A DNA stretch of 64,000 bases from a virus (lineage: Duplodnaviria; Caudoviricetes). The position numbers were made by a program, and so were the translations under genes. Shown here piece by piece: positions 14,835 to 61,425 of this stretch. Location: the IMG/VR virus record IMGVR_UViG_3300020420_000671; one strand, given 5' to 3'. The notes beneath the pieces are model-generated. The model had not been told where the DNA came from. It did not search any database and worked only from the letters and a program-made list of their open reading frames with translations. Positions within the stretch are counted from its first letter, which is position 1. Each line of letters opens with the position of its first letter.

Positions 14835-15203
14835 ATGGCGGAAGCCATGTTGTTATTCATGTTGGTTATAAAACATGCCCTAGCTGATCTGGTACTACAG
14901 AGCAGACTTACTTCTGGAGACAAAAGCAATCTAAAGAGTTGGAAAGGTTACATACACGCAGGAGACCACGGCCTTCTTACGTTCGTTGTTCTCTTGTTCT
15001 TTACTACCTTTGAAAATTCTGTAATCATAGGCATGTTGGATTACGTGCTTCATTTCCTTATAGACTATATCAAAACTGTATTAGTAAGACGTTTTGGTGT
15101 AGTACAGAATAGCCGAACATTTTGGATTGTACAAGGTGTTGATCAAATAGCACATTATTCTTGTTATTTTCTTTACGTTCTTCTCTTGACAAATCTATTA
15201 TAA
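14835..15203 (+). CDS. DUF3307-like membrane protein
   Basis: KHALADLVLQ...HAGDHG...LHFLIDYIK...GVDQIAH. Confidence 0.75.
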   Translation: MAEAMLLFMLVIKHALADLVLQSRLTSGDKSNLKSWKGYIHAGDHGLLTFVVLLFFTTFENSVIIGMLDYVLHFLIDYIKTVLVRRFGVVQNSRTFWIVQGVDQIAHYSCYFLYVLLLTNLL

Positions 15204-15216
15204 GATGCTATAAATA
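15186..15216 (+). promoter_or_regulatory. Composite sigma70 and late promoter for the tmRNA
   Basis: TTGACA-17-TATAAA; the -10 extends to TATAAATA. Confidence 0.75.
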
Positions 15217-15220
15217 ATAC

Positions 15221-15283
15221 TACAACGTTGAAGCAATTCAAACGCTGGACAGGACCTGGGGGCAGTACCCAGCAGGTCCACCA
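15221..15283 (+). ncRNA. ssrA: Two-piece (circularly permuted) tmRNA, acceptor piece
   Basis: GGAC-CTGGG-GGCAGTA-CCCAG-CAGGTCC-A-CCA: alphaproteobacterial-type T-arm plus 3' acceptor strand with encoded CCA; 5' end approximate. Confidence 0.9.
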
Positions 15284-15296
15284 TAAGGACATTGCT

Positions 15297-15485
15297 ATGG
15301 AAGTCATTTGGCATATTCTACTTACGGTTTGTTTAGGTTCGACCTGCCTAGAGCAAGACGTACAAAGGTTTGAGTCCAAGGTAGAATGTTACAAAGTATT
15401 GAAATACTATGAAACAACACCAGCAGATGGTCGTTGGGACACAGTAGAATATATTTGTAAGCCAGTTGGCTCAGTGTCTTTATGA
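15297..15485 (+). CDS. 62-aa Cys-pair family protein inside the tmRNA intervening segment
   Basis: SD AAGGA just after the CCA; ATG 15297; MEVIWHILLTVCLG...FESKVEC...YICKPVGSVSL*; stop 1 nt before the tmRNA 5' G. Confidence 0.75.
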   Translation: MEVIWHILLTVCLGSTCLEQDVQRFESKVECYKVLKYYETTPADGRWDTVEYICKPVGSVSL

Positions 15486-15486
15486 T

Positions 15487-15711
15487 GGGCCTGAAATAGG
15501 ATCGACTGACGGATTAGTAGAAGAGTGGAGTTGTCCGGATGTAAGCTCGGTTAACGCGAACAAACGTTATAAATGCAAACGATAATGCATCAAACGTATT
15601 TTCTTTCGTAGATTTTTCTAACGCGAGAAAGTACGTGAATGAGGATTTCGCCTTAGCGGCTTAATCGCTCGGGGTTGGCAACTTACCTAGCAACAGAAAA
15701 GTTGCTTTTTT
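15487..15711 (+). ncRNA. ssrA: Two-piece tmRNA, coding piece
   Basis: 5' GGGCCTG pairs 7/7 with CAGGTCC including G3:U70; AAATAGGATCGAC D-loop region; resume context ATAAAT-GCA; ends in GCAACTT...GCAACAGAA...AAGTTGC-T7. Confidence 0.9.
15575..15664 (+). other. tmRNA tag reading frame ANDNASNVFSFVDFSNARKYVNEDFALAA*
   Basis: Translated by hand from resume codon GCA 15575 to TAA 15662-15664; ANDN start and ALAA end. Confidence 0.85.
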
Positions 15712-15723
15712 ATGGGAGCTAGT

Positions 15724-16554
15724 ATGAATATTGGAGTTAGAGGTAGCAAACTAGCAATTGAATATGCTAAACAAGTAGAAGCACAATGTTTTAACAGTTT
15801 CCATACCAATCTCATTACAATCAAAACAGACGGTGATATCTTTGAGAATAAAAGCATACAAGACATAGGCGGCAAAGGTGTTTTTGTTTCTGCTATTGAA
15901 CAGCAATTATTAGATAAAAAGATAGATGTTGCTGTACACTCTTTCAAAGATCTTCCTGCGGTAATGGATTCAAGATTAGAAATATCAGCAGTATTAGAAC
16001 GCAATGATCCGAGAGATTGTTATATTGGAACGTTGTTTCCGAAAGCTAAAGTAGGTACAGGTAGTCCTAGACGTATTGCCCAACTACAAACAAACTTCAA
16101 TGTAGACTTTGATATACAGCACATAAGAGGCAATATAGATACTAGAATAAAAAAGCTAGAACAAGGAAAGTATGACGCTATTGTTTTAGCAGTAGCAGGA
16201 CTAGAAGCATTGGGTTTACAACACAAAATTACAAAGATATTTCCATTTGATAAAATGTTGCCTTGTGTAGGACAAGGAGTAATAGCAATACAAACTAGAA
16301 AAGGATCATCGCATAGTGAGGTTGCGAAACTAAATAATCACTGGAATACATACTATTCTGTGATGGCTGAACGTGCTATGTTACAAGAGATAGACGGAGA
16401 CTGCCATACTGCCGTAGGTGCTATTTCTACTCTAGTTGGAGGCTGTATAAATTTAAAAGCAATAAATTATAATACAGGAAAACAGTTTGAGTCAACCAGT
16501 AAACTGTTAGAGTATAAATTATTAGGTGAGGAAGTAGGTAAACAGTTAAAGTGA
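15724..16554 (+). CDS. hemC: Hydroxymethylbilane synthase (porphobilinogen deaminase)
   Basis: GVRGSKLA, KTDGD, GGKGVF, AVHSFKD, VGTGSPRR, IRGNIDTR, GQG, AERA...GDC cofactor Cys; SD GGGAG before ATG 15724. Confidence 0.93.
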   Translation: MNIGVRGSKLAIEYAKQVEAQCFNSFHTNLITIKTDGDIFENKSIQDIGGKGVFVSAIEQQLLDKKIDVAVHSFKDLPAVMDSRLEISAVLERNDPRDCYIGTLFPKAKVGTGSPRRIAQLQTNFNVDFDIQHIRGNIDTRIKKLEQGKYDAIVLAVAGLEALGLQHKITKIFPFDKMLPCVGQGVIAIQTRKGSSHSEVAKLNNHWNTYYSVMAERAMLQEIDGDCHTAVGAISTLVGGCINLKAINYNTGKQFESTSKLLEYKLLGEEVGKQLK

Positions 16555-17531
16555 ATAAAAAATTTGAAAACGCCTGTAATAGGAAGAGCCAAAAAGTTCC
16601 TCCTATTTGGTTTATGCGACAAGCAGGTAGATATCATTCTCATTATAGAGATCTTAAAAAAGTAAACACATTCGAACTTTTATGTAAAACTCCGGAACTA
16701 GCCGCTGAAGTGGCATTAGGTCCTATAAAAGAATTTGATTATGATGTTTCAATATTATTTTCTGATATACTATTTCCTTTGGAGGGACTAGGCTTACCAT
16801 TAAGATTCGATCCAGGACCTAAGTTTCAGTTTAATCTTAGCAAAGATAATGTTAAACATCTGAGAGATGTTGATAAAGCAATTGAATTCCTTTCGTTTCA
16901 GAGAGATGCTCTTATAACAACAAGAGCAATACTGCCCAAAAGAAAAAGTCTAATTGGTTTTGTTGGAGGACCTTGGACATTAATGAACTATGCTTGTGGA
17001 AAAGCAAAAGTAACAGATAAGTTTAAATTAGATTATATGAAGTCTACTCTTATACCGTTACTAAAAAGAAATATAGAGTTACAGATAAATGCTGGTGCTG
17101 AGAAGGTTATGATTTTCGATAGCGGACTTCAAAACATGACGACTAAATTTTTTAATTCTAAATATTCTCCTTTATTGATGTCTTTGGCCATGCCACAAAC
17201 TGCTTACTATAGCAGAAACCTGCCCAGAAAATGTATCAATAAAGTAGTAGAAGGAGACTGGGGTGGCATAGGCGTTGATAGTAAGATAGACATAATAGAC
17301 TGTTTAGAAACTGTAGATAAAGGTTTTGTTCAAGGAAACTTTGATGAACGTAAAATGCTTTTACCTAAGTACAAGTTTATGTATGAAATAGAAAGATACT
17401 GTGACGATATTAGAAAATCAAAAGTTGACACAACAGGTTGGGTATGTGGATTGGGACATGGTATAGATAAGACGACTCCGGAAGAACACGTACATTTATT
17501 CATAGAAACTGTTAGAAACAGATTCTCATAA
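16551..17531 (+). CDS. hemE: Uroporphyrinogen decarboxylase
   Basis: PPIWFMRQAGRY, ILFSDIL, LIGFVGGPWTL, VQGN, GLGHGI; GTGA overlap with hemC. Confidence 0.93.
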   Translation: MNKKFENACNRKSQKVPPIWFMRQAGRYHSHYRDLKKVNTFELLCKTPELAAEVALGPIKEFDYDVSILFSDILFPLEGLGLPLRFDPGPKFQFNLSKDNVKHLRDVDKAIEFLSFQRDALITTRAILPKRKSLIGFVGGPWTLMNYACGKAKVTDKFKLDYMKSTLIPLLKRNIELQINAGAEKVMIFDSGLQNMTTKFFNSKYSPLLMSLAMPQTAYYSRNLPRKCINKVVEGDWGGIGVDSKIDIIDCLETVDKGFVQGNFDERKMLLPKYKFMYEIERYCDDIRKSKVDTTGWVCGLGHGIDKTTPEEHVHLFIETVRNRFS

Positions 17532-25461: not shown

Positions 25462-26037
25462 ATGCCACTAAAGGCAGAAGCATGGTTTCCTAGTCTTATC
25501 TGGTCTGGATTACTAGACAATACTCATAACGACAAAATCAAAAAATTTGCTTATGAAAGAAAAGAGCAAGACGAAGGGGTTGAGTTATCTAACTACATAG
25601 GCTGGCAAAGCAGTTCTATTAGGCAAGGAGATAATGAAACATTTGATAGACTAGTTGAATCCATATCTTCTAATGTTGAAGATTGTAGAAACCTAGTTGA
25701 ACTTCCTGAATTACAACTTTATAATATTTGGATTAACATTAACACACCTGGAGCATATAATGCCTTACACAATCACCCAGGAAGTGTTTTAAGTGGTGTT
25801 TACTATGTAGAGAGTACTGAAGAACAAGGTAACATATTTTTTGAAAGAGGTGATAATGCTGAATATTTTTTACCTCCCGTGAAACAAACTAATTACTTCA
25901 ATGGTACTGCTACGTCATATAAAGCTATAACAGGTGCTATGTATGTGTTTCCTAGCTGGTTAAAGCATAGTGTACAACCTAATAAAACAGATAAAGATAG
26001 AATATCAATATCATTTAACTACGGAGTGAAAAAATGA
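25462..26037 (+). CDS. 2OG-Fe(II) oxygenase (TIGR02466-like)
   Basis: WININ...HNHPG..LSGVYYV...FPSWLKHSV..N....RISISFN. Confidence 0.88.
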   Translation: MPLKAEAWFPSLIWSGLLDNTHNDKIKKFAYERKEQDEGVELSNYIGWQSSSIRQGDNETFDRLVESISSNVEDCRNLVELPELQLYNIWININTPGAYNALHNHPGSVLSGVYYVESTEEQGNIFFERGDNAEYFLPPVKQTNYFNGTATSYKAITGAMYVFPSWLKHSVQPNKTDKDRISISFNYGVKK

Positions 26038-27083
26038 GAATCGAACAGGATATTAAATTAGATTACCAAGACGTGCTTTTTAAGCCAAAGCGATCTACTT
26101 TAACATCAAGAAAAGATGTAGATCTTACAAGAACATTTAAATTTTACAATAGCGGAAAAGAATGGACAGGCATTCCTATCATGTCAAGCAACATGGACGG
26201 AGTAGGAACATTCGCTATGGCTAAAGTTTTACAAGAACAAAAGATGATTACTGTGTTGAGAAAACACTACACACTAGACGATTGGAAAGTAGCCATAGGT
26301 GACGGTGTAAAGATGAAGTATCTTTCTGTGTGTACAGGTACAGGCGTGATATGGGATAAAGATGCTTTAGATTATAACACTATGAAAAAGGTATTAGAAA
26401 AATATCCAGATGTGCCTTTTATCTGTGTTGACGTAGCAAATGGCTATCATGAAAATTACGGTGACTTTATAGAAAAATTAAGATACGAATACCAAGATAA
26501 AACAATTATTGCTGGCAATGTAATCACAGCCGAAATGACTGAGGAACTGATCCTACGAGGTGCTGATATTGTTAAATGCGGAATTGGTCCTGGATCTGTA
26601 TGTACAACTAGATTAATGACTGGTGTTGGTGTTCCACAATTATCTGGTATTATTGAATGTGCTGATGCGGCCAATGGCGTAGGAGGACACATTATTGCTG
26701 ACGGTGGTTGTGTGTATCCAGGAGATGTAGCAAAGGCATTTGGAGCAGGAGCACACTTTGTAATGCTAGGAGGCATGTTAGCAGGACATGATGAAGCAGA
26801 AGGTGAAGTTGTTAATGGCAAGGTACAGTTTTATGGCATGAGTTCAAATGCGGCAATGTCCAAGCACGGATCACGTAAAGACGGTTATAGAGGTGCTGAA
26901 GGTAAAGTTGTAGAGTTGCCACATAAAGGACCAGTAAGAGATACAGTTACAGAAATACTAGGCGGTGTTAGATCAGCGGCAACATATATTGGTGCTAAAC
27001 GTATAAAAGACATGCCAAAATGTACTACCTTTGTACGTGTGAACAATGTAGTAAATCAGGTATACAAATCATTTGAAGCATAA
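26034..27083 (+). CDS. guaC: GMP reductase
   Basis: KLDYQDVLFKPKRSTL, SSNMDGVGT, DVANGY, GIGPGSVCTTR, ADGG, GMSS, GGVRSA. Confidence 0.95.
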   Translation: MRIEQDIKLDYQDVLFKPKRSTLTSRKDVDLTRTFKFYNSGKEWTGIPIMSSNMDGVGTFAMAKVLQEQKMITVLRKHYTLDDWKVAIGDGVKMKYLSVCTGTGVIWDKDALDYNTMKKVLEKYPDVPFICVDVANGYHENYGDFIEKLRYEYQDKTIIAGNVITAEMTEELILRGADIVKCGIGPGSVCTTRLMTGVGVPQLSGIIECADAANGVGGHIIADGGCVYPGDVAKAFGAGAHFVMLGGMLAGHDEAEGEVVNGKVQFYGMSSNAAMSKHGSRKDGYRGAEGKVVELPHKGPVRDTVTEILGGVRSAATYIGAKRIKDMPKCTTFVRVNNVVNQVYKSFEA

Positions 27084-28094: not shown

Positions 28095-28676
28095 ATGAGT
28101 TTAGAATCTTTAACACAAGCGGCAAAACAAAATGCTGACAGAACGGAATTTGCTCGAGTAATGACAGCAGGTAATCTATCAGAGGACAAGTATAAAACTT
28201 TCCTTTGGAATGCTTATTTGGTGTACGATATCCTAGAAGATGTTGCGGCAAGTATGGGTGCATTTGCGCCTATGGATCCTTCAATGCCAGCTGATGATTT
28301 ACCACTTGATGGACTTAAACAAGCAGATGATATATTAGCAGACTTTGTTGAACTAGGTGGCGATCCAGATAATCCTCCAGCAGTAGTACAAGCTACTGAG
28401 GATTACAGAAGTCACGTCGTGAAAAATATACAACACGACAAGCAGAAGCTTATAGCTCACTTATATGTTAATCATATGACGGACTTAACTAACGGACCAA
28501 CATTAGAGAAAAAAGTACCAGGTTCAGGAAAAATGTACAAGTTTGAAGAAATGTCTCACTCTATCGAGGAGATGAAAGAACTTGTTTCAAGACGTTTTTC
28601 TGATGATGATGCTATTGAAGCTAACATTGGTTTTGGTTACAGAACACAACAGTACGAACAGTTAAACGCACTATAA
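28095..28676 (+). CDS. Heme oxygenase-like protein with degenerate heme-binding motifs
   Basis: Overall HO pattern (LT...NADRTEF...Y..FL.N.Y.VY..LE...AHLYV.HM.DL..G...KKVPGSG.MY.F), but Lys replaces the proximal His and GDLSGG is TDLTNG. Confidence 0.75.
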   Translation: MSLESLTQAAKQNADRTEFARVMTAGNLSEDKYKTFLWNAYLVYDILEDVAASMGAFAPMDPSMPADDLPLDGLKQADDILADFVELGGDPDNPPAVVQATEDYRSHVVKNIQHDKQKLIAHLYVNHMTDLTNGPTLEKKVPGSGKMYKFEEMSHSIEEMKELVSRRFSDDDAIEANIGFGYRTQQYEQLNAL

Positions 28677-28677
28677 G

Positions 28678-29361
28678 ATGATTTGGGACAAACTGGTTGA
28701 ATGCCAGGACCAAATCATTAAACTGTTCGATCATCATGGGACTGAGATAAATGAACCAGGAATGGATCATTTTAATCAACCCGGAAGCGGATGGATTAAC
28801 AGAGTCTGGGCAAACGACGACATCAGAAGAGCTCACATAGACGTGGTAGATGCTAGAGATACAAAAGGTCTCTGGATGATGCACGTTTGTGTTTTACCTC
28901 AACTTAACAACGATGGACCTATATACGGCTTTGATGTTATAGCAGGTAAAACAAAAATGACAGGAGCATTCCACGATTTTTCAGCAAGTTCAGGTGGCGA
29001 AGACCATCCAATGGTTCAATGGTATCAGGATGAGGTAAAAGATTTTATTCCGGAGAAAAAAAGAGAACTTCCGGAATGGGCAACAAATATTTTTACTCCT
29101 AGCATGATTGCGGCAAGTAATGTCAAGGAAGAAGAAGCATCAGTTATCATTCAAATAGCTCTTGATAATCTTTTCGAGTATCTTGATACCATTGGTGAAT
29201 ACACAGGACAAGGCGATAGAGATCTAACTCTAGCAAGCCAAAATTATTATTGTCATAATCAGCAACAGAACCCACATACGCCTAGAGTTATGAAATCCTT
29301 AGGATTAAATGAAGCTGACGTAGAAAAGTTCTGTACTGATATGTTATTTCCGAAAAGTTAA
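28678..29361 (+). CDS. pcyX: Ferredoxin-dependent bilin reductase, PcyX-type
   Basis: INRVW...RRAHIDVVD...WMMHVC...YGFDVIAG...GAFHDFS...QQQNPHT; adjacent to an HO-like gene. Confidence 0.82.
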   Translation: MIWDKLVECQDQIIKLFDHHGTEINEPGMDHFNQPGSGWINRVWANDDIRRAHIDVVDARDTKGLWMMHVCVLPQLNNDGPIYGFDVIAGKTKMTGAFHDFSASSGGEDHPMVQWYQDEVKDFIPEKKRELPEWATNIFTPSMIAASNVKEEEASVIIQIALDNLFEYLDTIGEYTGQGDRDLTLASQNYYCHNQQQNPHTPRVMKSLGLNEADVEKFCTDMLFPKS

Positions 29362-36760: not shown

Positions 36761-36974
36761 CAAATGTATGATTACCTGTACAGACAACGATAATGTTGCT
36801 GAAGCAGAAGTTGATAGATTTGAAGAAAAGAAATTTTTAGATGTATTTTTAGCACAAAATAAAATACACATGGAATGGAACGGTAAAGTGTTTGTGGGCA
36901 ATAAACTAGGAATGGAATTCACAACACCAGGACCAGAAGAATTAGCAATACTGAAAGGAAGAGGAGATGCCTAA
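36741..36974 (+). CDS. Hypothetical phage protein
   Basis: SD AAGGA before ATG 36741. Confidence 0.6.
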
Positions 36975-37551
36975 TCTAGTACCAGTCATTATAGAAAAAG
37001 AAGCAAGAGGAGAAAGAAGCTACGACATATATAGTAGACTTCTCAAGGACAGAATCATTATGTTAGACACTGATGTGAATAGCACCAGTGCCAGTTTAAT
37101 TGTAGCACAGATGCTTTTCTTAGAATCAACATCTCCTGGAAAACCTATTAATTTTTATATTAATTCACCAGGTGGTAGTGTAACTGCTGGAATGAGCATA
37201 TATGACACAATGCAATTTATAAAATCACCAATACATACAACAGTGATGGGAATTGCGGCAAGTATGGGAAGTTTTCTTGCTATGGCAGGAGAGCCAGGTA
37301 AAAGAGCGATATTACCTCATGCTAGACACATGATTCATCAGCCTAGTGGAGGAGCATCTGGACAGGCAAGTGATGTTGAGATAAGATACAAAGAATTACA
37401 GTATTGGAAAGAAACACTCACTGACTTGTATGTGAAACACATAGGTTTAGATAGAGAAAAGGTAGCCAAAGACATGGATAGAGATTTCTTTATGAGTGCT
37501 CAGGAATCTATCGATTATGGGTTAGCAGATTACATAGCAGAGAAAAAATAA
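36967..37551 (+). CDS. clpP: ATP-dependent Clp protease proteolytic subunit
   Basis: [26 protein letters not shown] (Ser), MIHQP (His), DRDFF (Asp). Confidence 0.96.
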
Positions 37552-51202: not shown

Positions 51203-54200
51203 ATGGCTAGACAAGATATTTATTTAGGGGTTGAAGGTAACGACGGTACTGGTGATAGTATTCGTGAAGCATTTAAAAAAGCTAACGAAAACTTTACTGA
51301 ACTTTATGCTGTATTTGGACAAGGCGGAACAATCAGCTTTACAGCATTAAGTGATACACCCACAGCTATTACACCAAACGGACTTCTAATAGGTAACACG
51401 ACCGGAACAGAATTAATACAAAAAACATTAACAGGTGGTACAGGTATATCAATTGATAATACAAGTGCTACAAACATTACAATAACAAACACTGGTGCTA
51501 ATATTAATGCTGACACTAGTCCTATACTAGGTGGACCATTAAGTGGTAATGCTGTTTATCCTATAGGAAAAATTAACACATCTACTGCCGCTGTAGCAGA
51601 ATTTAATCAAACTCATGCTTCACAAATTACAATAGATGACCTTGTAACAGATAAAAAATATCAAGATAAAAATTACGCACCTCATACAGTCACACAAACT
51701 AATAAATCTGTGTATGCTAGATCTGAACCGACTAATGATGCGGAATACACACAAACAATTACAGAATATAGATCAGGTAACGTTGTAATATCCAACCATG
51801 GATTTGATAACAGCTTCAATGGTACACAATGGAAATATTCGACTACAAATACAGCACCAAATGGATTGACAAACAACACTGATTATTTTGTTAGATTTGT
51901 TTCTTCAGATCAACTCAGTCTACACACAACTAAAACTGAGGCACAAAATGATGACGATCTTACAAGAGTAAAAGTCAACATAGGTTTAGGATCAACAACT
52001 GCCGTAACAGGTACAGATGTAATTAAAGATCAAAGTTATAATGAAAGTTTATATGGTAATTACAGAATTGACGAAGTCATGCCGAGAAATGCTTCAGTTA
52101 GAAGACAGGGAGATGAATTAGCAGGACCTTTATATCTTTCAGACCATCCTGGTTATCTACAAGGCACTACAGGCCCTATAGAAGATAGACAAGCGGCTTC
52201 AAAACTTTATGTTGATAATTCTTCTTATGCGAGTACTGAAGATCTTTTTGTAACAAAACAAGGTGATGATACCCAAGCTAATACTCCAGTTGGTTTTGAA
52301 GGAAGAGGATTAAGCTATGCTTTTGGAAGTTTAAAAGCGGCGGCTTTAAAAGCACAAGAGATAATGGAGTCAGCACCAATAGAACCTGGTGCTTATAGAC
52401 AAACTATTACGTTCAATGCCGGCGACGGAATTTCATTAGTTACAAAATCTGAAACTAAAACACCTAACTCTGCGGCATCGAGTGCTATAAAATATTTACA
52501 AGGAAGTAAAAAGTTTGTACAAAAATCTGTAGTAGATTATGTAAAAGATAATTTTCCTACACACAGTTTCTTTGATACAAATGTTATTAATACAAACACA
52601 GAAAGTTTGTTATTTAAAAATAAAAAATTTATACAAGAAGAAGTTACAGCCTGGATTAATTATCAAATCAACACAGGAGCAACTGTAAGCTATAGTGATG
52701 GTACTGCTGACTTTACAGGATTCAAATACAGTTCAGCAAAATGTAAAAGAGATGTAGGATACATTGTTGACGCTTGGGAAAATGATTTAGCCAGAGGCGG
52801 AAACATTGAAACACGTAGAATAGCTTCAAGTTATCTAGCTGGTGCTGTGAATGCTGTAAACAAAAATACAAGTAACGCAGGTAATACTGTCAACCAAATA
52901 GCCCAAACAAATGCCGCAATCGAATTTGCTAGAGATTTAGTTAAGGATTATATTTTAACAGGAACAGCTTATCCTACAAAACAGGGATACTTCCAAGTTA
53001 ATGCTTCTAACTTAACTGGTACTGGTTTTAGATTTTATATTGGTACATCATCATACGCCAATGCTTATGTAAATGGTGGACTAGTTACCAAATCAGATGG
53101 AACACAACTTAACGTAAGCACATTCACATATGATTATACAACAGGATTTGCCGATGTAGTTACAACTACGACACATGGATTATCAGCAGGTAATACAGTA
53201 CAGCTAACTGGTATAAATGTTTCCTGTACATATGAAGGTTCAACACAGCAAAAAGTATATCCAGAACTTGTAAGTCAAGCAAACTGTTATAAATTTACAG
53301 TACAGAACACGGGTTACTTAGGAACAGCTCCTACATCAAATCAATTACAAATTTACGTAGGTCCAAGTAAGTACGGACACACTTATGTAAGTGGTGGTAC
53401 CATAAAAGGAACTTTAACAGAATTTTCTCCAACAGGAGCAACTTACAATCCTGCGACAGGAGATATGGTAATTACCATAGGTAACCATACCCTCACTACT
53501 TCTAACACAATTGAAATAGAACCAAACAGTTTTACGTTTACATGTGCCAAAGATAACAATGCTACATTACATTCTTATCCTAGAAAAGAATCTGTAACAT
53601 CATCGCCAAGCAGTGATCCAGCATACAATACAGCTTTAGCTATTACGGCAGTAGGCAGTACAACAATAACAGTTAATGTAGGTATATCTTCTGATACAAG
53701 TGTACACACTTTCGTAGGAGCAAGAACAAATGCTGTCAAGTATTACTCAGAAAGTAACACAATTACTGGTTTCAATTATAGTAACACAACAGGTTATGCT
53801 ACAATAACAACTTCAAATACACATAGTTTAGTAGCAGGAAACAAAGTCGAATTAGCTGACATTTATCTATCTTGTACAGCACCAACAGCAAGTAATACAT
53901 ATTACCCACAACCAATTTACGCAGATTACGGAACTGGTAACAAAGATATTCCTGGTAGAGCAAATACTCTTACAGAACTTATTGTAGATGTGATTGCTAA
54001 TGGATTAGGAAAAGTGCCTGCTCCAGTACAACCAGAAAAAGCTAACAACACTTGTGAAAGAGATTTGGGACTTATAATCGATGGTATGATAATCGATATT
54101 AGAAACGGAACAAATTCAAACTTCAACGCATTACAAGCGGCCAAGAGATATTTCAGTACACCTAGTGGAGCAAAAGCAAGAATAAGTCAAAAGACAGAAA

Positions 54201-57200
54201 CACTTGCGGCTATAACAAAAGCAAAATCCTATGTTAGAAGCGTTGTTTCTAATACAGATTTAAAAAGACAATCAAGATTATTCACAGTTGAAAGTGCTAA
54301 TTTATCAGGCACACAATTCCAAGTTGCCGTAGGTACTTCTAATACAGTTCATACTTACATCAGAGGTGGTACTGTTACTTTTGGAAATCAACAGTTTGCT
54401 ATAAACAATTTTGCTTATGATAATGTTACAGGAAAAGGTTTAATAACTACTACAACCACACACGGATTAACCACAGGTAATGTTGTTCAATTAGACGGTA
54501 TTGTATTTGAATGTAATACCGGTATCAAGGAGTATCCAGGAGAATTTTCAACAGACATTCCACAATACTTAGATAGCACTCTTTCAACAGTATCTGATAC
54601 AATTAAAAACGCATTAGATAATCAGTTTGATATTATTTTAGATATTTTAACAAACGGCTTTACAGCAGTAGATACTTATACAGTGGTTGAAGGTAGTACA
54701 TACAAGATTCAATTTAGTAATGGTGGATCAAACTACTACACTGACCAAGGTATAAACAGTAACGTAGATATTCTTCCAGGAAAAATTATTGTAGGTAAAA
54801 CTACCGGAGCAAGAGGTAGAATTGTAAAATATACAAGTGGTGTAGATTTAGGTAACGTTGCTTACGACGAAGTTGAAGTTGTATTAGTTGAGCCAAAAGA
54901 ATTTAGAATTGGTGAAGAACTAGAATATGGTAACGGAACAAAAGAGAAACAAATTTGTATCCATGTTGAATCAGGAATATACTACGAAGATTATCCTATT
55001 AAAGTTCCTGACAACGTATCAATTAAGGGAACAGACTTTAGACGTTGTCAAATCAGACCGGCACCGAGAATTTCTCAATCACCTTGGGCTAAAACTTATT
55101 TTTATAGAGATAAACTTTTAGACAATCTACAAATTACAGACTTTACCGGAGCAGACATTGCTACGGCACAAGATATTACAATTACAGGTACTAATGAAGC
55201 AGGCGGAGTTATTACTGTTACTCCAGCAGACAATATCGCTCCTATTGCTTGGGACGGTGCTTGGTTCTATACAGACAACGGCGCAGTTGGATTAATTTCA
55301 AACGCTGATGGTGGAAGTGACTTCAATGTTACTTTGACTGTAGATATTTTACCAAACTTGTCTAATATAAGTTCAGGTGCTTGGCATGTTAAGAAAACTG
55401 TCAATTACGGATATCACTATCTAACTGATCCAGGTGACGCAACTAGTGTGGCCAAACGTAACGACCAAATGGATGTATTCTTAATGAATGATGCTACAAG
55501 GTTAGCAAACATGTCATTCCAAGGACACGGTGGTTTTGCTCAGGTACTTGATCCAGCAGGACAAGTTCTTATTAAATCTCCATACACACAGGTTTGTGGA
55601 TCATTCTCAGGAAGTGTTAACAAACAAGCATTTAGAGGTGGTATGTTTATTGACGGTTTCTCAGGAAACTTAGAAACTGTTATCACAAGCAAAGATGACA
55701 ATTATACATTGAATGTTCAATCAGCTGTCGGAACAGGTTTGAGAATAAGAAAACCACAAACACCTGCTCCGTTCTTTATTAACGGTGTACGTTATCAGGT
55801 TGATGCTATATCAGAATATGATGGTGGAGCAGGAACAGGTAAACTTTTAATCAACAAACTTTCAAACGAAGGAAACGGCTACACTGATGCTATTCCAGGA
55901 AGTGGTACAGCTATATTCATTCAGACTGCTGGTAATAGGTCAATGTTGGCAAATGACTATACTCAGGTTAACGACTTAGGTTACGGATTATTTGTTAACA
56001 ACGCAGGTCTTTCAGAACAAGTTTCAACATTCACATACTACAACCACATAGCGTTCTTTAGTAACAACGGTTCAGAGATTAGAGCTCTTAACTGTTCTAA
56101 CGCAAATGGTAACTTTGGTTTAGTTGCGGCAGGATCAGATCCAAATGAAACTGTTGATGCTATTACTTCATTAAGAACTATGCAACAGCCTGCTAAGGTT
56201 TACAATGATGCTAGTAACACATACGGCTTCGGTGCTATTTCACATGCGGCTGGTGTTAACACAATCCATTTATATGATTGTGATTACCATCCATATCCTA
56301 ACAGTTTAATTGATGTTTACACTAGGGATGGAAGCGGAAACATCACAGCATTGAACACATATGAAGTCACAGCGGTATCGGCACTATCTGTTCCTACTTC
56401 TAACTCAGGAGGATACACGGGTGCTACAGGTCCTACAGGACGTAAAGGTGCTAACCAAACAATTTACAGATGTAACATATCAGGTGATACTGGATTAGCA
56501 AGTGCCATTACAGGTGACCATAATGTAAACTTGGCATCAGATGCTTCTCCTTACGTGATAATGAGAATGAATAAAAACCACTTGTTCTCAGGAGTATCAG
56601 GTGTTACAAGTATTAGACCATCAACAGCTTTGATATTTGATGAAAACTTAGATCAAGTTTATAGAACAATTAGCTTCAACAATCAAGACTCTGATAACAG
56701 TGCACTTGCGGCTGATAGGTTCCAAATAGTTTTTGATTCAGGATTTAAACATCTAAACCTTACAGTAAATCAAACAGAAGCTGTGAATAACACATACGCT
56801 GGTGCTGGTACAACAATGGGAGCAACGGTAGGTGACGTTGTAATTGCTATTGAAAAACTAACAGCGGCAGGTATTGCTAGAATCAATAATAACGATATGA
56901 TATTTGCTTGGGGAGGTAAACTTCACCAAGTATCAAACTACACGGATAGAACAACATTCGCTACAATTAATTTGTCCGATGTTGCGGCTTCTAATATTAA
57001 TAGTAATAACGGATTGTACACTGGTTCTGGTATAGCTAAAAAGGTTTATAGTGCTGGCGGAACTACAGCGATTACATTGACACTATCATTAGCGTCAAAT
57101 GAAGCGGCTAACATAACAGTTGGTATTTCAACATTAAGAGCAAACGGACATGACTTTGATAAAATTGGTACTGGTGGATTTAATACTACTAACTATCCTA

Positions 57201-59089
57201 GCATTATTTACGGTGAACCAGTTAACTCAGCTACACAGGCAAATGAAGTAAACGAAAGAGGAAAAGGTAGAGTATTCTTTGCTTCTACAGACCAAGACGG
57301 ATTCTTTAGAGTTGGTAAGTTCTTCAGTGTTGACCAAGGAACAGGTACAGTTACTTTTGCGGCATCGATTGCTATTAGTAACTTAGATGGACTAGGCTTT
57401 AAGCAAGGTGTTAGAATTACAGAATTTAGTAACGATGATACAATGGCAGATGCTGATCCAGCCGCGGTACCTACAGAATTTGCCGCTGAAGCATTCTTGA
57501 CAAGAAGATTACATTTCGATAGAACAGGAGCTTTACAAACAGTTGGTACAATAGGTCCTGGTGCGTTAGCAAGAGACGGTACAACACCTTTAACAGGAAA
57601 TTTAAATGCTGGTGGAACTAATAAAATATTTAACATGGCGGACCCAACCAATCAACAGGATGGGGCAACTAAATCATATGTAGATGCTAGAACTCCATTT
57701 GGCTCAGAAGCTATAGGAGTTAACATTGCCAACAGACAAACAAATGACTTCTTGGCATATACTGGTTCTAGTTACGACAACGTTACTCCAGCAGGTGACA
57801 TTGGCATTAGTGTCACAGGAAATATCGCTACATTTTCAATTACAGCAGATTCTATTGTAAACGCTGATGTAAACACAAACGCCGGTATAGCTCAAAGCAA
57901 GTTGGCAATGAATGCGGCAACTACAAGAGCTAATTCTACAGGCATTGCTCAAAGTGATTTAGGACTAGCAAGTTTTGACTCAGGTGACTTTACTGTAACA
58001 AATGGTTTTGTAACTTTAAAAGAAGGTAGTGTTGATTACGCAGACTTACCTGATATGGCGGCAAAAACTGTACTAGCAAATATAACCGCAGGCACAGCAG
58101 ACACAGTTGCAGTTACTATTGATGATTTAATTGACAACTATAGTAAATTCACAACTACTGGTGTTGCTTCTAGAATTGTACAAACTGGTACAGATGGTAG
58201 TATAGACGCACAGAAATTTAAACTTGATAACTATGATATCTTAGACCAAACTAACTTAACAATGACTCTTAAAACACCTGGTGGTGCTAAGGTATTTGAT
58301 ACTGTCGGATCAGTAGCAAGTAACACAACTACAACATTCCCAGGTACTATACAGATAGGTGACACAGATACTGCGGCATCTTTCTTCCAAAAGAATAGTA
58401 GCTATGGAGATCCAAGTGATGCTACACTTAACGAACCAAGATTAGCAAGTGATTGGGTATACACTTCATTTATAGAAGCTCCAGGAGAAAAGGGAGCATC
58501 TTCAACAGGTATAGCTGTAGGAGCAGGTACAGGATTTACAGCCGCAGGTGAAATAGCAGTCATAGCAAACAACAATGTGGCGGCTATTAAATTTACACAA
58601 ACAGCGGCAAGCCCTTCAAGTAATAATGGATATGCTTTAGGAACATCTGCTTTAAGATATTCTACAGTTTATGCTACAGCATTAGATGGTTTGGCAACTT
58701 CAGCAAAATACGCTGACTTGGCAGAAAACTATCTAGCAGATAATGATTACGAAGTAGGAACCGTGCTTATATTTGGTGGTGAACAAGAACTTACTACAAC
58801 AAATATTAAGGGAGATACCAAGGTAGCAGGTGTTGTTTCAGAAAATCCAGCACACTTAATGAACAGCCAATTAGAAGGTGACCATGTTACGCCATTGGCA
58901 CTACAAGGTAGAACTCCTTGTAAAGTAATTGGCACAGTCAAAAAAGGTGACATGATTGTTACAAGTGCGGTAGCAGGATACGGTATGGTAAACAACGTAC
59001 CAGGTATAGGAACAATAATTGGTAAAGCAGTGGGCACAAAAGATGATGACGGACATGGCATTGTTGAAGTTGTGATAGGGAGAGTATAA
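51203..59089 (+). CDS. Giant (2628 aa) tail/baseplate fibre protein
   Basis: gp9/gp10-type N-terminus (GNDGTGDSIREAFKKANENFTELY), internal repeats, beta-helix-like region, C-terminal ADLAENY..D..YE.GTV...ALQGR.PCKV chaperone-like domain. Confidence 0.85.
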   Translation: MARQDIYLGVEGNDGTGDSIREAFKKANENFTELYAVFGQGGTISFTALSDTPTAITPNGLLIGNTTGTELIQKTLTGGTGISIDNTSATNITITNTGANINADTSPILGGPLSGNAVYPIGKINTSTAAVAEFNQTHASQITIDDLVTDKKYQDKNYAPHTVTQTNKSVYARSEPTNDAEYTQTITEYRSGNVVISNHGFDNSFNGTQWKYSTTNTAPNGLTNNTDYFVRFVSSDQLSLHTTKTEAQNDDDLTRVKVNIGLGSTTAVTGTDVIKDQSYNESLYGNYRIDEVMPRNASVRRQGDELAGPLYLSDHPGYLQGTTGPIEDRQAASKLYVDNSSYASTEDLFVTKQGDDTQANTPVGFEGRGLSYAFGSLKAAALKAQEIMESAPIEPGAYRQTITFNAGDGISLVTKSETKTPNSAASSAIKYLQGSKKFVQKSVVDYVKDNFPTHSFFDTNVINTNTESLLFKNKKFIQEEVTAWINYQINTGATVSYSDGTADFTGFKYSSAKCKRDVGYIVDAWENDLARGGNIETRRIASSYLAGAVNAVNKNTSNAGNTVNQIAQTNAAIEFARDLVKDYILTGTAYPTKQGYFQVNASNLTGTGFRFYIGTSSYANAYVNGGLVTKSDGTQLNVSTFTYDYTTGFADVVTTTTHGLSAGNTVQLTGINVSCTYEGSTQQKVYPELVSQANCYKFTVQNTGYLGTAPTSNQLQIYVGPSKYGHTYVSGGTIKGTLTEFSPTGATYNPATGDMVITIGNHTLTTSNTIEIEPNSFTFTCAKDNNATLHSYPRKESVTSSPSSDPAYNTALAITAVGSTTITVNVGISSDTSVHTFVGARTNAVKYYSESNTITGFNYSNTTGYATITTSNTHSLVAGNKVELADIYLSCTAPTASNTYYPQPIYADYGTGNKDIPGRANTLTELIVDVIANGLGKVPAPVQPEKANNTCERDLGLIIDGMIIDIRNGTNSNFNALQAAKRYFSTPSGAKARISQKTETLAAITKAKSYVRSVVSNTDLKRQSRLFTVESANLSGTQFQVAVGTSNTVHTYIRGGTVTFGNQQFAINNFAYDNVTGKGLITTTTTHGLTTGNVVQLDGIVFECNTGIKEYPGEFSTDIPQYLDSTLSTVSDTIKNALDNQFDIILDILTNGFTAVDTYTVVEGSTYKIQFSNGGSNYYTDQGINSNVDILPGKIIVGKTTGARGRIVKYTSGVDLGNVAYDEVEVVLVEPKEFRIGEELEYGNGTKEKQICIHVESGIYYEDYPIKVPDNVSIKGTDFRRCQIRPAPRISQSPWAKTYFYRDKLLDNLQITDFTGADIATAQDITITGTNEAGGVITVTPADNIAPIAWDGAWFYTDNGAVGLISNADGGSDFNVTLTVDILPNLSNISSGAWHVKKTVNYGYHYLTDPGDATSVAKRNDQMDVFLMNDATRLANMSFQGHGGFAQVLDPAGQVLIKSPYTQVCGSFSGSVNKQAFRGGMFIDGFSGNLETVITSKDDNYTLNVQSAVGTGLRIRKPQTPAPFFINGVRYQVDAISEYDGGAGTGKLLINKLSNEGNGYTDAIPGSGTAIFIQTAGNRSMLANDYTQVNDLGYGLFVNNAGLSEQVSTFTYYNHIAFFSNNGSEIRALNCSNANGNFGLVAAGSDPNETVDAITSLRTMQQPAKVYNDASNTYGFGAISHAAGVNTIHLYDCDYHPYPNSLIDVYTRDGSGNITALNTYEVTAVSALSVPTSNSGGYTGATGPTGRKGANQTIYRCNISGDTGLASAITGDHNVNLASDASPYVIMRMNKNHLFSGVSGVTSIRPSTALIFDENLDQVYRTISFNNQDSDNSALAADRFQIVFDSGFKHLNLTVNQTEAVNNTYAGAGTTMGATVGDVVIAIEKLTAAGIARINNNDMIFAWGGKLHQVSNYTDRTTFATINLSDVAASNINSNNGLYTGSGIAKKVYSAGGTTAITLTLSLASNEAANITVGISTLRANGHDFDKIGTGGFNTTNYPSIIYGEPVNSATQANEVNERGKGRVFFASTDQDGFFRVGKFFSVDQGTGTVTFAASIAISNLDGLGFKQGVRITEFSNDDTMADADPAAVPTEFAAEAFLTRRLHFDRTGALQTVGTIGPGALARDGTTPLTGNLNAGGTNKIFNMADPTNQQDGATKSYVDARTPFGSEAIGVNIANRQTNDFLAYTGSSYDNVTPAGDIGISVTGNIATFSITADSIVNADVNTNAGIAQSKLAMNAATTRANSTGIAQSDLGLASFDSGDFTVTNGFVTLKEGSVDYADLPDMAAKTVLANITAGTADTVAVTIDDLIDNYSKFTTTGVASRIVQTGTDGSIDAQKFKLDNYDILDQTNLTMTLKTPGGAKVFDTVGSVASNTTTTFPGTIQIGDTDTAASFFQKNSSYGDPSDATLNEPRLASDWVYTSFIEAPGEKGASSTGIAVGAGTGFTAAGEIAVIANNNVAAIKFTQTAASPSSNNGYALGTSALRYSTVYATALDGLATSAKYADLAENYLADNDYEVGTVLIFGGEQELTTTNIKGDTKVAGVVSENPAHLMNSQLEGDHVTPLALQGRTPCKVIGTVKKGDMIVTSAVAGYGMVNNVPGIGTIIGKAVGTKDDDGHGIVEVVIGRV

Positions 59090-59385: not shown

Positions 59386-61425
59386 ATGGCAAATAGATTT
59401 CCAATTATAGTTGACAGAGATGATCAAAACAAGCTAAAAGAATTACCGTCAGGTGATAATCTCGATCTTACAGGATCAGGTATAGTTGGTGCTGGAAATA
59501 TATCAGCAACTGGGCTTACAATTAATAATATTAGCTATAATCCATTTAGCGGTAGTTGGAACGATCTAGCAGATAAACCAACAGTAGCGGCAACAACAAC
59601 GGACTTACCAGAAGGCACTAATCAATACTTTACCAACGAGCGAGTAGATGATAGAGTTGCGGCAGTCCTAAGAGAAGGTACTGGAATAGATATCCAGTAT
59701 GACGATCTTAATGGCACTATCACAATTACAAATACAGGAACAAGCAGTGGAGGTAGTGGAGGACTTGCTCCAGCAACAAACTTTGACGGATTAGCAAATA
59801 ATCAAATTATTAAATATTCAACAACAGGTAATACCGATGGCGGAGCGGCATGGGTAAACGGAAGCATTAACTACAGTGAAATTGTTGGAACACCTAGTCT
59901 TGCTACTGTAGCTACCACTGGTAGTTACACTAATCTTACAAATAAACCTACTTTGGTAGATGACATAAGTGATTTAGCTGATGTAGATACTATTTCTAAT
60001 CCTCCAGCAACAGGACAAGTCTTAAAATGGGACGGTGGCAAATGGGCACCAGCAGATGATATTACAACAGGAGGTTCAGGCCTAAACGCAGATACACTAG
60101 ATGGATTTGATGGATCTTATTATTTAAATTATGTTAACTTAACAAATAAGCCAACCTTATTCGATAGTCAGTTTAGTTCATTAACAGGAACTCCTACAAC
60201 TTTATCAGGTTATGGAATTACAGATGCCATTAGTTCTAATCAAAGCTATACGCAAAACGGATCCATTACAATTAATGATGACAATGGATTACAAATCGGC
60301 GGCAGTTCCATAAGTAAGGTTTCATTAGGTATTACAGGCGGTAATGTTGTTTTACAAAATTTAGTTAATGAACAAGACTTTGAAATAAAAGTCAAACCTA
60401 TTGCTGGTGTAACTACAGCATTAAAAGTTGATACAGGTTCTGGTAGAGTAGGTATATATAAAACTACACCAACAAGAACACTAGACGTTGGAGGCGACGT
60501 TGGCGCTACAAACTTCTTTGGTGGCGGATCAAACTTAACAGGTATTACTCTTACACAGGTTACTACAGCTGGATCAGAAACAACTAACAGCGTGAGTTTT
60601 GGAAACGTAAATCCATCAGCTGATAGTGCTTATAGTTTAGGGTCTAACACTATTAGATGGGCAAACACTTATACAGATAACTTATCTATTGACGGAGGTT
60701 CAACATTCGCAGATGGAGCATTAAGTATTAAAACAGGCACAGGTAGTGTAGCTAGGATTGATTTATATTGTGAAACAAACAATGTCCATTACGTAAGAAT
60801 AGAACCACCAGCACATGCCAACTATACTGGAAATGTCACACTTACATTACCCAACACTTCAGGTACTATTGCTCGTACAGCAGATATTCCTACTGTACCA
60901 TCAACTATAAGTTCATTCACAAATGACTCAGGTTATATTACAGATATTACAGCACAAAGTATTAACAGCCTTAGTGATGTTACGATTACAAGTGTACAAA
61001 ACGATCAAATTTTAAAATACAATAGCTCATCAGGAAAATGGGAGAACGGCACAGGCGGTGGCCAGGTTGGAAACTTTACATTATCTAGTAGTGTAATTGA
61101 TACTGACGATAGTTCACAAATTGTTATGACACCAAGTGTTAGAATGAGCAGTGACTTAACTGTTGACGGAAATCTAACTGCTCAAAGATTTACAGCAGAC
61201 AGTTTTGAAAGTTCAGGAGTAGGTACGCCTCAAATAGATAGTGCTAGTTCAATAGAACTTATAGCACAGGATCAAGTTAAAATAACTAATAGTCCATTGA
61301 GATTGGCAAGTTTCACTACTACCCAAAGAGATGCATTAACGGCCGGCAACGGAGATACTATTTACAATACAACGACCAATAAGTTCCAAGGATATGCAAA
61401 CGGTGCTTGGGTTGATTTACATTAA
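59386..61425 (+). CDS. Tail fibre protein
   Basis: T/S/G-rich; repeated SYTNLTNKP and LSDLADV.../LKWDG..W motifs. Confidence 0.8.
   Translation: MANRFPIIVDRDDQNKLKELPSGDNLDLTGSGIVGAGNISATGLTINNISYNPFSGSWNDLADKPTVAATTTDLPEGTNQYFTNERVDDRVAAVLREGTGIDIQYDDLNGTITITNTGTSSGGSGGLAPATNFDGLANNQIIKYSTTGNTDGGAAWVNGSINYSEIVGTPSLATVATTGSYTNLTNKPTLVDDISDLADVDTISNPPATGQVLKWDGGKWAPADDITTGGSGLNADTLDGFDGSYYLNYVNLTNKPTLFDSQFSSLTGTPTTLSGYGITDAISSNQSYTQNGSITINDDNGLQIGGSSISKVSLGITGGNVVLQNLVNEQDFEIKVKPIAGVTTALKVDTGSGRVGIYKTTPTRTLDVGGDVGATNFFGGGSNLTGITLTQVTTAGSETTNSVSFGNVNPSADSAYSLGSNTIRWANTYTDNLSIDGGSTFADGALSIKTGTGSVARIDLYCETNNVHYVRIEPPAHANYTGNVTLTLPNTSGTIARTADIPTVPSTISSFTNDSGYITDITAQSINSLSDVTITSVQNDQILKYNSSSGKWENGTGGGQVGNFTLSSSVIDTDDSSQIVMTPSVRMSSDLTVDGNLTAQRFTADSFESSGVGTPQIDSASSIELIAQDQVKITNSPLRLASFTTTQRDALTAGNGDTIYNTTTNKFQGYANGAWVDLH

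Follow-up and report, generated by a model that had tools for sequence, protein, structure and literature searches.

What does a phage gain from two enzymes of the heme pathway that are encoded side by side directly behind a stable RNA gene, when the gene for the enzyme acting between them is missing? This question is raised by a stretch of 64,000 nucleotides of the virus record IMGVR_UViG_3300020420_000671 (Duplodnaviria; Caudoviricetes), hereafter called the window, in which a transfer-messenger RNA (tmRNA) gene, ssrA, is followed by hemC, encoding hydroxymethylbilane synthase (HMBS, or porphobilinogen deaminase), and hemE, encoding uroporphyrinogen decarboxylase (UROD). An earlier reading made from the letters alone (the sequence-only reading) had described an intact hemC-hemE pair joined by a GTGA overlap, with hemC beginning 12 nt after the U tract of the tmRNA and no separate promoter before it. 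Open reading frames (ORFs), Pfam and NCBIfam profiles and residue alignments confirmed the first part of this description, and the second held as well: the sole promoter-like element lies upstream of ssrA and is invariant. We suggest, with a probability of about 0.7, that HemC and HemE are produced early by the host RNA polymerase and would keep up or raise tetrapyrrole flux in the infected cell, with the HemD of the host (uroporphyrinogen III synthase) acting between them and the host completing the pathway. The arrangement itself, hemC-hemE behind a tmRNA gene, is unreported among the known tetrapyrrole auxiliary genes of phages.

Integrity and conservation of the hemC-hemE pair

The coordinates of the features are presented in Table 1. 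The hemC frame is open from 15712; all relatives have the ATG at 15724, preceded at 5-8 nt by a GGAG/GAGG box, whereas five of six lack the upstream ATG or have it in another frame, and the start was therefore placed at 15724 and not at 15712. The product matches the Pfam family Porphobil_deam (4e-63; PF01379 with 213.1 bits and the C-terminal PF03900 with 29.8 bits, both above their cut-offs) and the NCBIfam equivalog TIGR00212 (268.6 bits versus a cut-off of 164). In an alignment to the E. coli enzyme (1ah5/1pda), R11, K83/D84, R131/R132, R149, R155 and the cofactor-binding Cys242 of the GDC motif are kept, and 11 phage and SAR11 sequences show no variation at the catalytic and binding residues. 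Relative to SAR11 HemC, the phage protein lacks 7 residues of a loop and is shorter at its C-terminus. HemE spans positions 3-345 of the 346 positions of the Pfam URO-D profile (4.6e-56; 190.7 bits versus a gathering threshold of 23.9) and matches UROD chains of the PDB with E-values down to 2.8e-32. The motifs PIWxMRQAGRY, FSD, WTLxxY, IFDS, QGNxD and GLGHGI are kept (alignment to 3cyv and 4zr8), and the active-site residues of true UROD (the two Arg of RQAGRY, Asp, Tyr, Ser and His) are invariant in nine phage-type sequences. The GTGA overlap suggests that translation of the two genes would be coupled. Judged by these features, HemC and HemE are probably genuine, functional auxiliary metabolic proteins.

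Table 1 Features of the window discussed in the text
Feature	Positions	Strand	Evidence or remark
Promoter, sigma-70-type	15186..15214	+	TTGACA (15186-15191), 17-nt spacer, TATAAA (15209-15214); before ssrA
tmRNA gene (ssrA), two-piece (permuted), alpha-type	15182..15708	+	Rfam RF01849, 91.5 bits (gathering 50), and RF04321, 91.2 bits; ARAGORN
Hairpin with T6 run at the ssrA 3' end	15689..15711	+	6 pairs, ~-6.8 kcal/mol; T6 run at 15706-15711; candidate leaky terminator or processing site
Ribosome-binding site (RBS), GGGAGC	15714..15719	+	GGAG/GAGG in relatives; 5 nt before the hemC ATG; alignment of 7 junctions
hemC, hydroxymethylbilane synthase (porphobilinogen deaminase)	15724..16554	+	276 aa, short phage type; Pfam, NCBIfam, residues
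hemE, uroporphyrinogen decarboxylase	16551..17531	+	326 aa; GTG start overlapping the hemC stop (GTGA)
2-oxoglutarate (2OG)-Fe(II) oxygenase	25462-26037	+	Directly before GMP reductase; pair kept in relatives
GMP reductase	26034-27083	+	NF003470, 496.5 bits, above cut-off
hemO-like (heme-oxygenase-like)	28095..28676	+	Pfam Heme_oxygenase, 1.4e-11; 10.5 kb downstream of hemC-hemE
PcyX-type ferredoxin-dependent bilin reductase (FDBR)	28678..29361	+	Pfam Fe_bilin_red, 6e-16; one base after hemO-like
ClpP protease, full-length	36967-37551	+	Pfam, 2e-76

The pair is part of a recurrent gene order, which comprises the large and small subunits of ribonucleotide reductase (RNR), small ORFs, DUF3307, the tmRNA, hemC, hemE, SNase, two cell-wall hydrolases, the 2OG oxygenase and GMP reductase. 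This order was found in 7 IMG/VR contigs and 3 further assemblies, and more cases came from a second scan (L136-L145). The contigs with this order (L001-L010 and L134-L145) stem from different samples, and in these independent assemblies HemC and HemE are placed among phage genes. Protein identity of the syntenic relatives to the window ranges from 99% down to 65-68%. The tmRNA gene adjoins hemC in L001-L008, and the tmRNA 3' motif stands directly before hemC in all 21 loci with the bare hemC-hemE pair (~17 distinct contigs). Purifying selection on both genes is strong in the phage lineage: in pairwise comparisons with unsaturated dS (0.1-1.2 for both genes), dN/dS was 0.06-0.09 for hemC and 0.01-0.06 for hemE.

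The tmRNA gene and expression of the pair

Another important question is how hemC and hemE would be transcribed. The promoter-like element before ssrA is of near-consensus sigma-70 type; its two hexamers are invariant in seven relatives, the sequence of the 17-nt spacer varies, and the transcription start predicted from it is the 5' end of the tmRNA_permuted match (15222). An automated promoter scan missed this element and gave a weaker overlapping match instead. The box before ssrA was read as a sigma-70 -10 element and not as a late promoter. The candidate late promoter TATAAATA was rejected, as its 6 copies in the window, versus 9 expected by chance, indicate no enrichment. The 12 nt from the T run to the hemC ATG offer space for the RBS alone and for no further promoter. 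The 3'-terminal hairpin of ssrA is a weak one (-3.8 to -6.8 kcal/mol) with an invariant stem, and the U tract after it is degenerate in relatives (GTCTTT, TTCTTT, ACTTTAAAA). Because a conserved promoter precedes ssrA and merely a weak hairpin precedes hemC, it is likely that ssrA, hemC and hemE form one early transcription unit, from which the tmRNA would be processed out and in which read-through would give the hemC-hemE mRNA.

Contigs from RNA libraries were also compared with the locus. One of them crosses the hemC/hemE junction (16419-16633), and both genes are covered in part by others (libraries of three studies, with DNA carry-over possible). A further RNA-library contig covers the acceptor piece of the tmRNA, the ORF inside the tmRNA gene described below and the start of the coding piece. 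The tmRNA-matching RNA contigs stop at ~15705 and then run into unlike sequence, and they are therefore probably tmRNAs of other organisms. No habitat was read from the small-share RNA runs.

ARAGORN predicts a permuted tmRNA, in which the acceptor piece has its CCA end at ~15283 and the coding piece encodes the tag ANDNASNVFSFVDFSNARKYVNEDFALAA, ending in ALAA. The intervening segment between the two pieces is occupied by a 62-codon ORF with its own Shine-Dalgarno (SD) sequence (15297-15485, + strand). The window, L001, L002 and L008, with tmRNA genes of 505-527 nt, have this ORF, and L003-L007, with tmRNA genes of 359-377 nt, lack it. The Methylophilales phage Melnitz, an isolate of the Kyanoviridae, likewise has a two-piece tmRNA and a small-ORF homologue; the homologue (70% DNA identity) is annotated there as a 66-aa hypothetical protein immediately upstream of the tmRNA. 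The Melnitz tmRNA has been described, and heme genes are not mentioned in that description (PMC9004378). Across the wider phage group, tmRNA genes may be common. Protein genes behind a stable RNA gene that has a small gene inside it make this locus useful for studying the processing of phage tmRNA precursors. The conserved tmRNA 3' motif was also seen in phage loci with hemE alone (L105, L148, L206 and L207).

Origin of the phage enzymes and the missing hemD

Where do the phage enzymes come from? Two HemC trees were built, a careful one of 53 sequences and a quick one of 151 rows. Phage-context HemCs form one clade (100/99) and Pelagibacteraceae-type HemCs another (100/99), and the two clades join (100/100) apart from other alphaproteobacteria; in SAR11-type cells, the context of the gene is tsaD-hemC-hemD. 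The phage HemEs also form one clade (SH-aLRT 99). Ordinary Pelagibacteraceae HemEs, 33-38% identical to the phage proteins, lie across the deepest split of the tree, and the nearest cellular kin (39-51% identity) belongs to a second HemE type, which occurs in streamlined marine alphaproteobacteria. The divergent phage HemE thus belongs to a "type 2" branch common to some streamlined alphaproteobacteria, a type found in 3 of the 201 sampled alphaproteobacterial genomes (the search gave a match in 157 of the 201, G047 counted among them) and, within the order to which the Pelagibacteraceae reference belongs, in 4 of 121 genomes. Identity of the phage HemC and HemE to any cellular homologue is 33-51%. 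Since HemC is of the Pelagibacteraceae type and HemE is nearest to the second, streamlined-alphaproteobacterial type, the phage pair is, on the evidence of these trees, an old mosaic of two cellular sources and not a recent capture from a host.

In the streamlined genomes (L127/G061, L128/G122 and L129/G037; 1.2-1.4 Mb), a long hemC (492-507 aa), hemB, hemE, hemH and hemF form an operon beside a divergent alaS, and the HEM4 domain was undetected anywhere in these three whole genomes; the C-terminal extension of the long HemC may be a reduced HemD. The phage pair resembles this operon in having its nearest HemE kin there, in its tight gene packing and in the lack of a stand-alone hemD. It differs from it in HemC, as the cellular protein has an extended C-terminus, while the phage protein is of the shorter Pelagibacteraceae (tsaD-hemC-hemD) type.

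The most likely host is a SAR11-type alphaproteobacterium, as suggested by the alpha-type two-piece tmRNA, by the sister position of HemC to Pelagibacteraceae HemC and by the FDBR, which is 55% identical to that of the Pelagibacter phage Mosig.

Is hemD skipped in this phage only, or in related phages as well? To assess the wider set, 97 phage loci were surveyed, some contigs having been fetched twice. They comprise hemE alone (30), hemC-hemE (21), hemE-hemF-hemC (15), hemF-hemC-hemE-hemB (13) and hemE followed by hemC (10), and AlaS is encoded in 6 of the 97. Phage-type HemE is encoded by at least 136 IMG/VR contigs. Larger heme clusters of other marine phage lineages are found in L011-L013, L106 and many of L146-L210. 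Of these clusters, hemF-hemC-hemE-hemB, sometimes with alaS, has phosphoribosyl pyrophosphate synthase, fatty-acid desaturase and lipase genes as neighbors and is very abundant (145 index blocks). The order hemE-hemF-hemC occurs on a 281-kb contig; hemC alone adjoins gp23 in a curli-bearing T4-like pelagimyophage; and hemE alone lies between peroxiredoxin and desaturase genes or between KDO-8-P synthase and cytidylyltransferase genes. In two contigs of 39-135 kb (L016, 7001-7840; L017, 7001-7837), a phage-clade HemC, 51-58% identical to that of the window, stands in the middle of a co-directional cluster that encodes at least six radical-SAM/SPASM enzymes together with an aminotransferase and UDP-glucose dehydrogenase-like proteins and contains no further heme gene; this cluster may lead to an unknown pyrrole- or tetrapyrrole-derived product.

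A HemD profile was built from the ORFs flanking cellular hemC and detects hemD after hemC in 63 of 81 cellular loci. In six frames of the 97 phage loci and the window, it gave no match even at E <= 1, and Pfam found no HEM4/HemD among the window ORFs or in the two longest relatives. The skipping of hemD noted by the sequence-only reading is thus a general rule among the phage loci examined, the window included. Regarding other heme genes, hemB and hemF are found in sister phage lineages, ferrochelatase was not found in the 97 loci, and a Pfam sweep of the window revealed no heme gene beyond hemC, hemE, hemO-like and pcyX. One candidate for a hidden HemD, an ORF of 250-258 aa beside DUF6267 near some phage heme clusters, was rejected: with filters off it gave no HemD signal. 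It has a nucleotidyltransferase-like GGN..GDLD motif and no homologue in the window.

Proposed function of the pair in the infected cell

These data raise a key question: what would HemC and HemE do without HemD? In the course of events that we propose, the sigma-70 RNA polymerase of the host would start at the TTGACA-17-TATAAA promoter before the phage ssrA, the tmRNA pieces would be cut out of the ssrA transcript, and transcripts passing the weak 3' hairpin would carry hemC and hemE, to be translated as a coupled pair (SD, GTGA). The phage enzymes would raise or maintain the HMBS and UROD capacity of the infected cell, host HemD would act between them, and the later membrane-associated steps would be done by the host. 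Heme supply would thus be sustained in infection, for respiratory and other heme proteins, and part of the heme may be converted to bilin and free iron by the phage heme-oxygenase/PcyX proteins. HMBS works slowly, cells usually contain uroporphyrinogen III synthase in great excess, and the later steps of the pathway are membrane-associated. The slowness of HMBS and the excess of HemD may be the reason why the phage carries HemC and HemE but not HemD.

Several points limit this proposal. In four RNA runs, searched as contigs, none of the contigs joins ssrA to hemC, and positions 15724-15970 are uncovered, which speaks neither for nor against read-through. HemE reaches 192.7 bits with TIGR01464, its sole NCBIfam match, which is below the equivalog cut-off of 302.95, and it is therefore a divergent type. 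The HMBS and UROD activities of the phage proteins are predicted from their sequences, and the host assignment is indirect (tmRNA type, HemC kinship and FDBR identity). HemD was not found in the window, the 97 loci and the fragments of relatives; a very divergent HemD, or one farther away in the genome, is possible. Finally, in the hemO-like protein of the window, the proximal heme-ligating His is replaced by Lys11, as judged from an alignment to human HO-2 and relatives, and the local heme-to-bilin step is therefore uncertain.

The last point bears on an alternative in which bilin is the main purpose and heme an intermediate: hemC-hemE would push flux for heme oxygenase and PcyX, giving biliverdin, phycoerythrobilin and iron. 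The adjacent hemO-like and pcyX genes favor it, as does the presence of the FDBR gene in both long relative contigs (G001 and G002). The pair is shared with Mosig, a Kyanoviridae isolate whose FDBR, likewise beside a heme oxygenase, is 54.6% identical to that of the window, and alaS-hemO-pcyA/X cassettes occur in aquatic phages, with activity for a freshwater set (PMC11480375). However, the proximal position holds Lys in the window and Gln in G002, as opposed to His in G001 (88% identical) and Mosig, so that the ligand position is variable within one phage lineage, and the distal motif is degenerate as well (TDLTNG for GDLSGG). Moreover, hemC/hemE and hemO/pcyX do not form one operon, many phage contigs with hemE or hemC have no hemO or pcyX within 10 kb, and a bilin role in a non-phototrophic host is not established (PMC11480375). 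We therefore regard a bilin purpose as unlikely. A change of function, by which HemC, HemE or both would act on different pyrroles or porphyrinogens or contribute to a different product, appears improbable. It would agree with the score of HemE under the equivalog cut-off, with the phage-clade HemC of the radical-SAM/SPASM clusters and with the frequency of hemE alone, but the substrate-binding and catalytic residues are all kept in both enzymes, and the same clades adjoin hemB, hemF and alaS in other lineages, which is the company of the canonical pathway.

Could the lack of hemD itself be the purpose? Hydroxymethylbilane closes spontaneously to isomer I, which UROD accepts, while HemF uses only the III isomer. 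A deliberate bypass, in which hydroxymethylbilane outpaces host HemD and uroporphyrinogen I and coproporphyrinogen I build up as a photosensitiser or sink, could draw on this chemistry and on the failure to find hemD in any phage heme cluster examined. Sister lineages add hemF as well as hemB or alaS, which fits a productive pathway instead, and nothing points to a use for type-I porphyrins; we consider such a bypass very improbable. The probability that the locus is an assembly artefact or host DNA in a viral bin is practically negligible. The tblastn matches of HemC and HemE to GenBank phages are all in records that resemble host contamination, which might raise such a suspicion, but this synteny recurs in ~17 independent contigs, with 65-99% protein identity, the DNA of the window occurs in runs of at least five other studies, G+C is uniform (0.35-0.39) and the proteins are distant from every cellular homologue. 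A chimeric host insertion, which the sequence-only reading had left as a way for its claim to fail, is thus excluded.

The sequence-only reading had suggested that the phage pulls flux at the uroporphyrinogen III branch point to heme and away from siroheme and B12. This part is doubtful. To our knowledge, SAR11-type cells lack the siroheme and B12 branches, and the argument is weak because such cells are the likely hosts. With hemB, hemF and alaS added in related phages, the pattern resembles a broad strengthening of the soluble heme steps more than control at a branch point. The sequence-only reading had also left the hemO-like/pcyX pair 10.5 kb downstream out of its argument. More tentatively, and with more doubt than confidence, one may picture an old phage-specific heme toolkit in marine phages of SAR11-type hosts, with monophyletic HemC and HemE, and HemF, HemB and AlaS, covering the soluble steps from 5-aminolevulinate to protoporphyrinogen, and with no uroporphyrinogen III synthase found. 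In the present lineage, HemC-HemE would be tied to an early tmRNA promoter, so that ribosome rescue and heme supply would be switched on together and heme would go to phage heme proteins and bilin.

Known phage tetrapyrrole genes and the wider window

How much of this is new? The sequence-only reading had held that core tetrapyrrole genes are not among the commonly described phage auxiliary genes, and this was too strong. Zaragoza-Solas et al. 2020 (PMC7029224) reported GMP reductase, porphobilinogen deaminase and coproporphyrinogen oxidase as unique to "deep ecotype" pelagimyophages, with ferrochelatase and heme oxygenase in a supplementary table, and Wegner et al. 2024 (PMC11480375) described viral alaS-hemO-pcyA/X cassettes of aquatic phages, adding that pelagiphage and metagenomic sequences hint at further heme genes. 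The hemE gene, the link to tmRNA and the hemD gap are the parts that stand as unreported: the literature searched contains no paper that pairs uroporphyrinogen decarboxylase with pelagiphages or presents it as a jumbo-phage gene, and none on a hem-tmRNA linkage or a phage hemD gap. In isolates, tblastn of GenBank phages revealed no hemC or hemE in a genuine phage genome; matches in Salmonella, Acinetobacter and Staphylococcus contigs labeled as phages have the appearance of bacterial contamination and were not used as evidence for phage hem genes. PHROGs has no family for HemC or HemE of the window.

The window shares GMP reductase and hemC with the deep-ecotype pelagimyophages but shows no coproporphyrinogen oxidase or formate dehydrogenase, and PMC7029224 is silent on uroporphyrinogen decarboxylase, tmRNA and gene order in that group. 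With the alaS-hemO-pcyA/X cassettes it has in common tetrapyrrole genes in pelagimyophage-like marine phages, hemO beside a PcyX-type reductase, and phage enzymes that stand apart from bacterial ones with Pelagibacteraceae as the nearest cellular kin. The cassette study, however, deals with AlaS at the first step and with the catabolic end, and not with hemC, hemE, hemB, hemF, a tmRNA linkage or a missing hemD (PMC11480375). The three-gene cassette itself was not found in the window: hemO-like and pcyX are adjacent, and AlaS was not found in the window or in seven viral contigs of relatives.

Phage tetrapyrrole genes have so far represented the ends of the pathway (alaS; hemO and bilin reductases), and the data presented here indicate that the middle is phage-borne too, in clades of its own and in recurrent arrangements. 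The finding brings no new principle but extends a current topic in a clean manner, being both widespread and easy to test. The hemD gap can be turned into a testable statement on which heme steps are limiting in an infected cell of SAR11 type, which is among the most abundant cell types in the sea, and hemC and hemE, as two small genes, provide a clean test case.

The remainder of the window agrees with a phage source. Almost all genes are on the + strand, and G+C is even (0.33-0.39). Viral genes include RNR, DNA ligase, UvdE, cell-wall hydrolases, T4 gp9/10-like, tail-fibre and virion proteins, and there are three tRNAs. At the DNA level, kin were found only in the family of the Methylophilales phage Melnitz and in pelagiphages. 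CheckV estimates a completeness of 9-22% for related IMG/VR contigs of 21-78 kb, and the genome size is therefore put at several hundred kb, which points to a large (giant) marine myovirus, much larger than the pelagimyophages of ~140-150 kb. Among the relatives, there are contigs of 280-370 kb. The ClpP protease and the phage tmRNA, with its unusually long tag of 29 aa ending in ALAA, may represent a phage-owned tag-and-degrade pair. Close to the end of the window, an ORF of 2628 aa (51203-59089, + strand) precedes a tail-fibre-like gene (59386-61425) and a subtilase gene (61435-63039).

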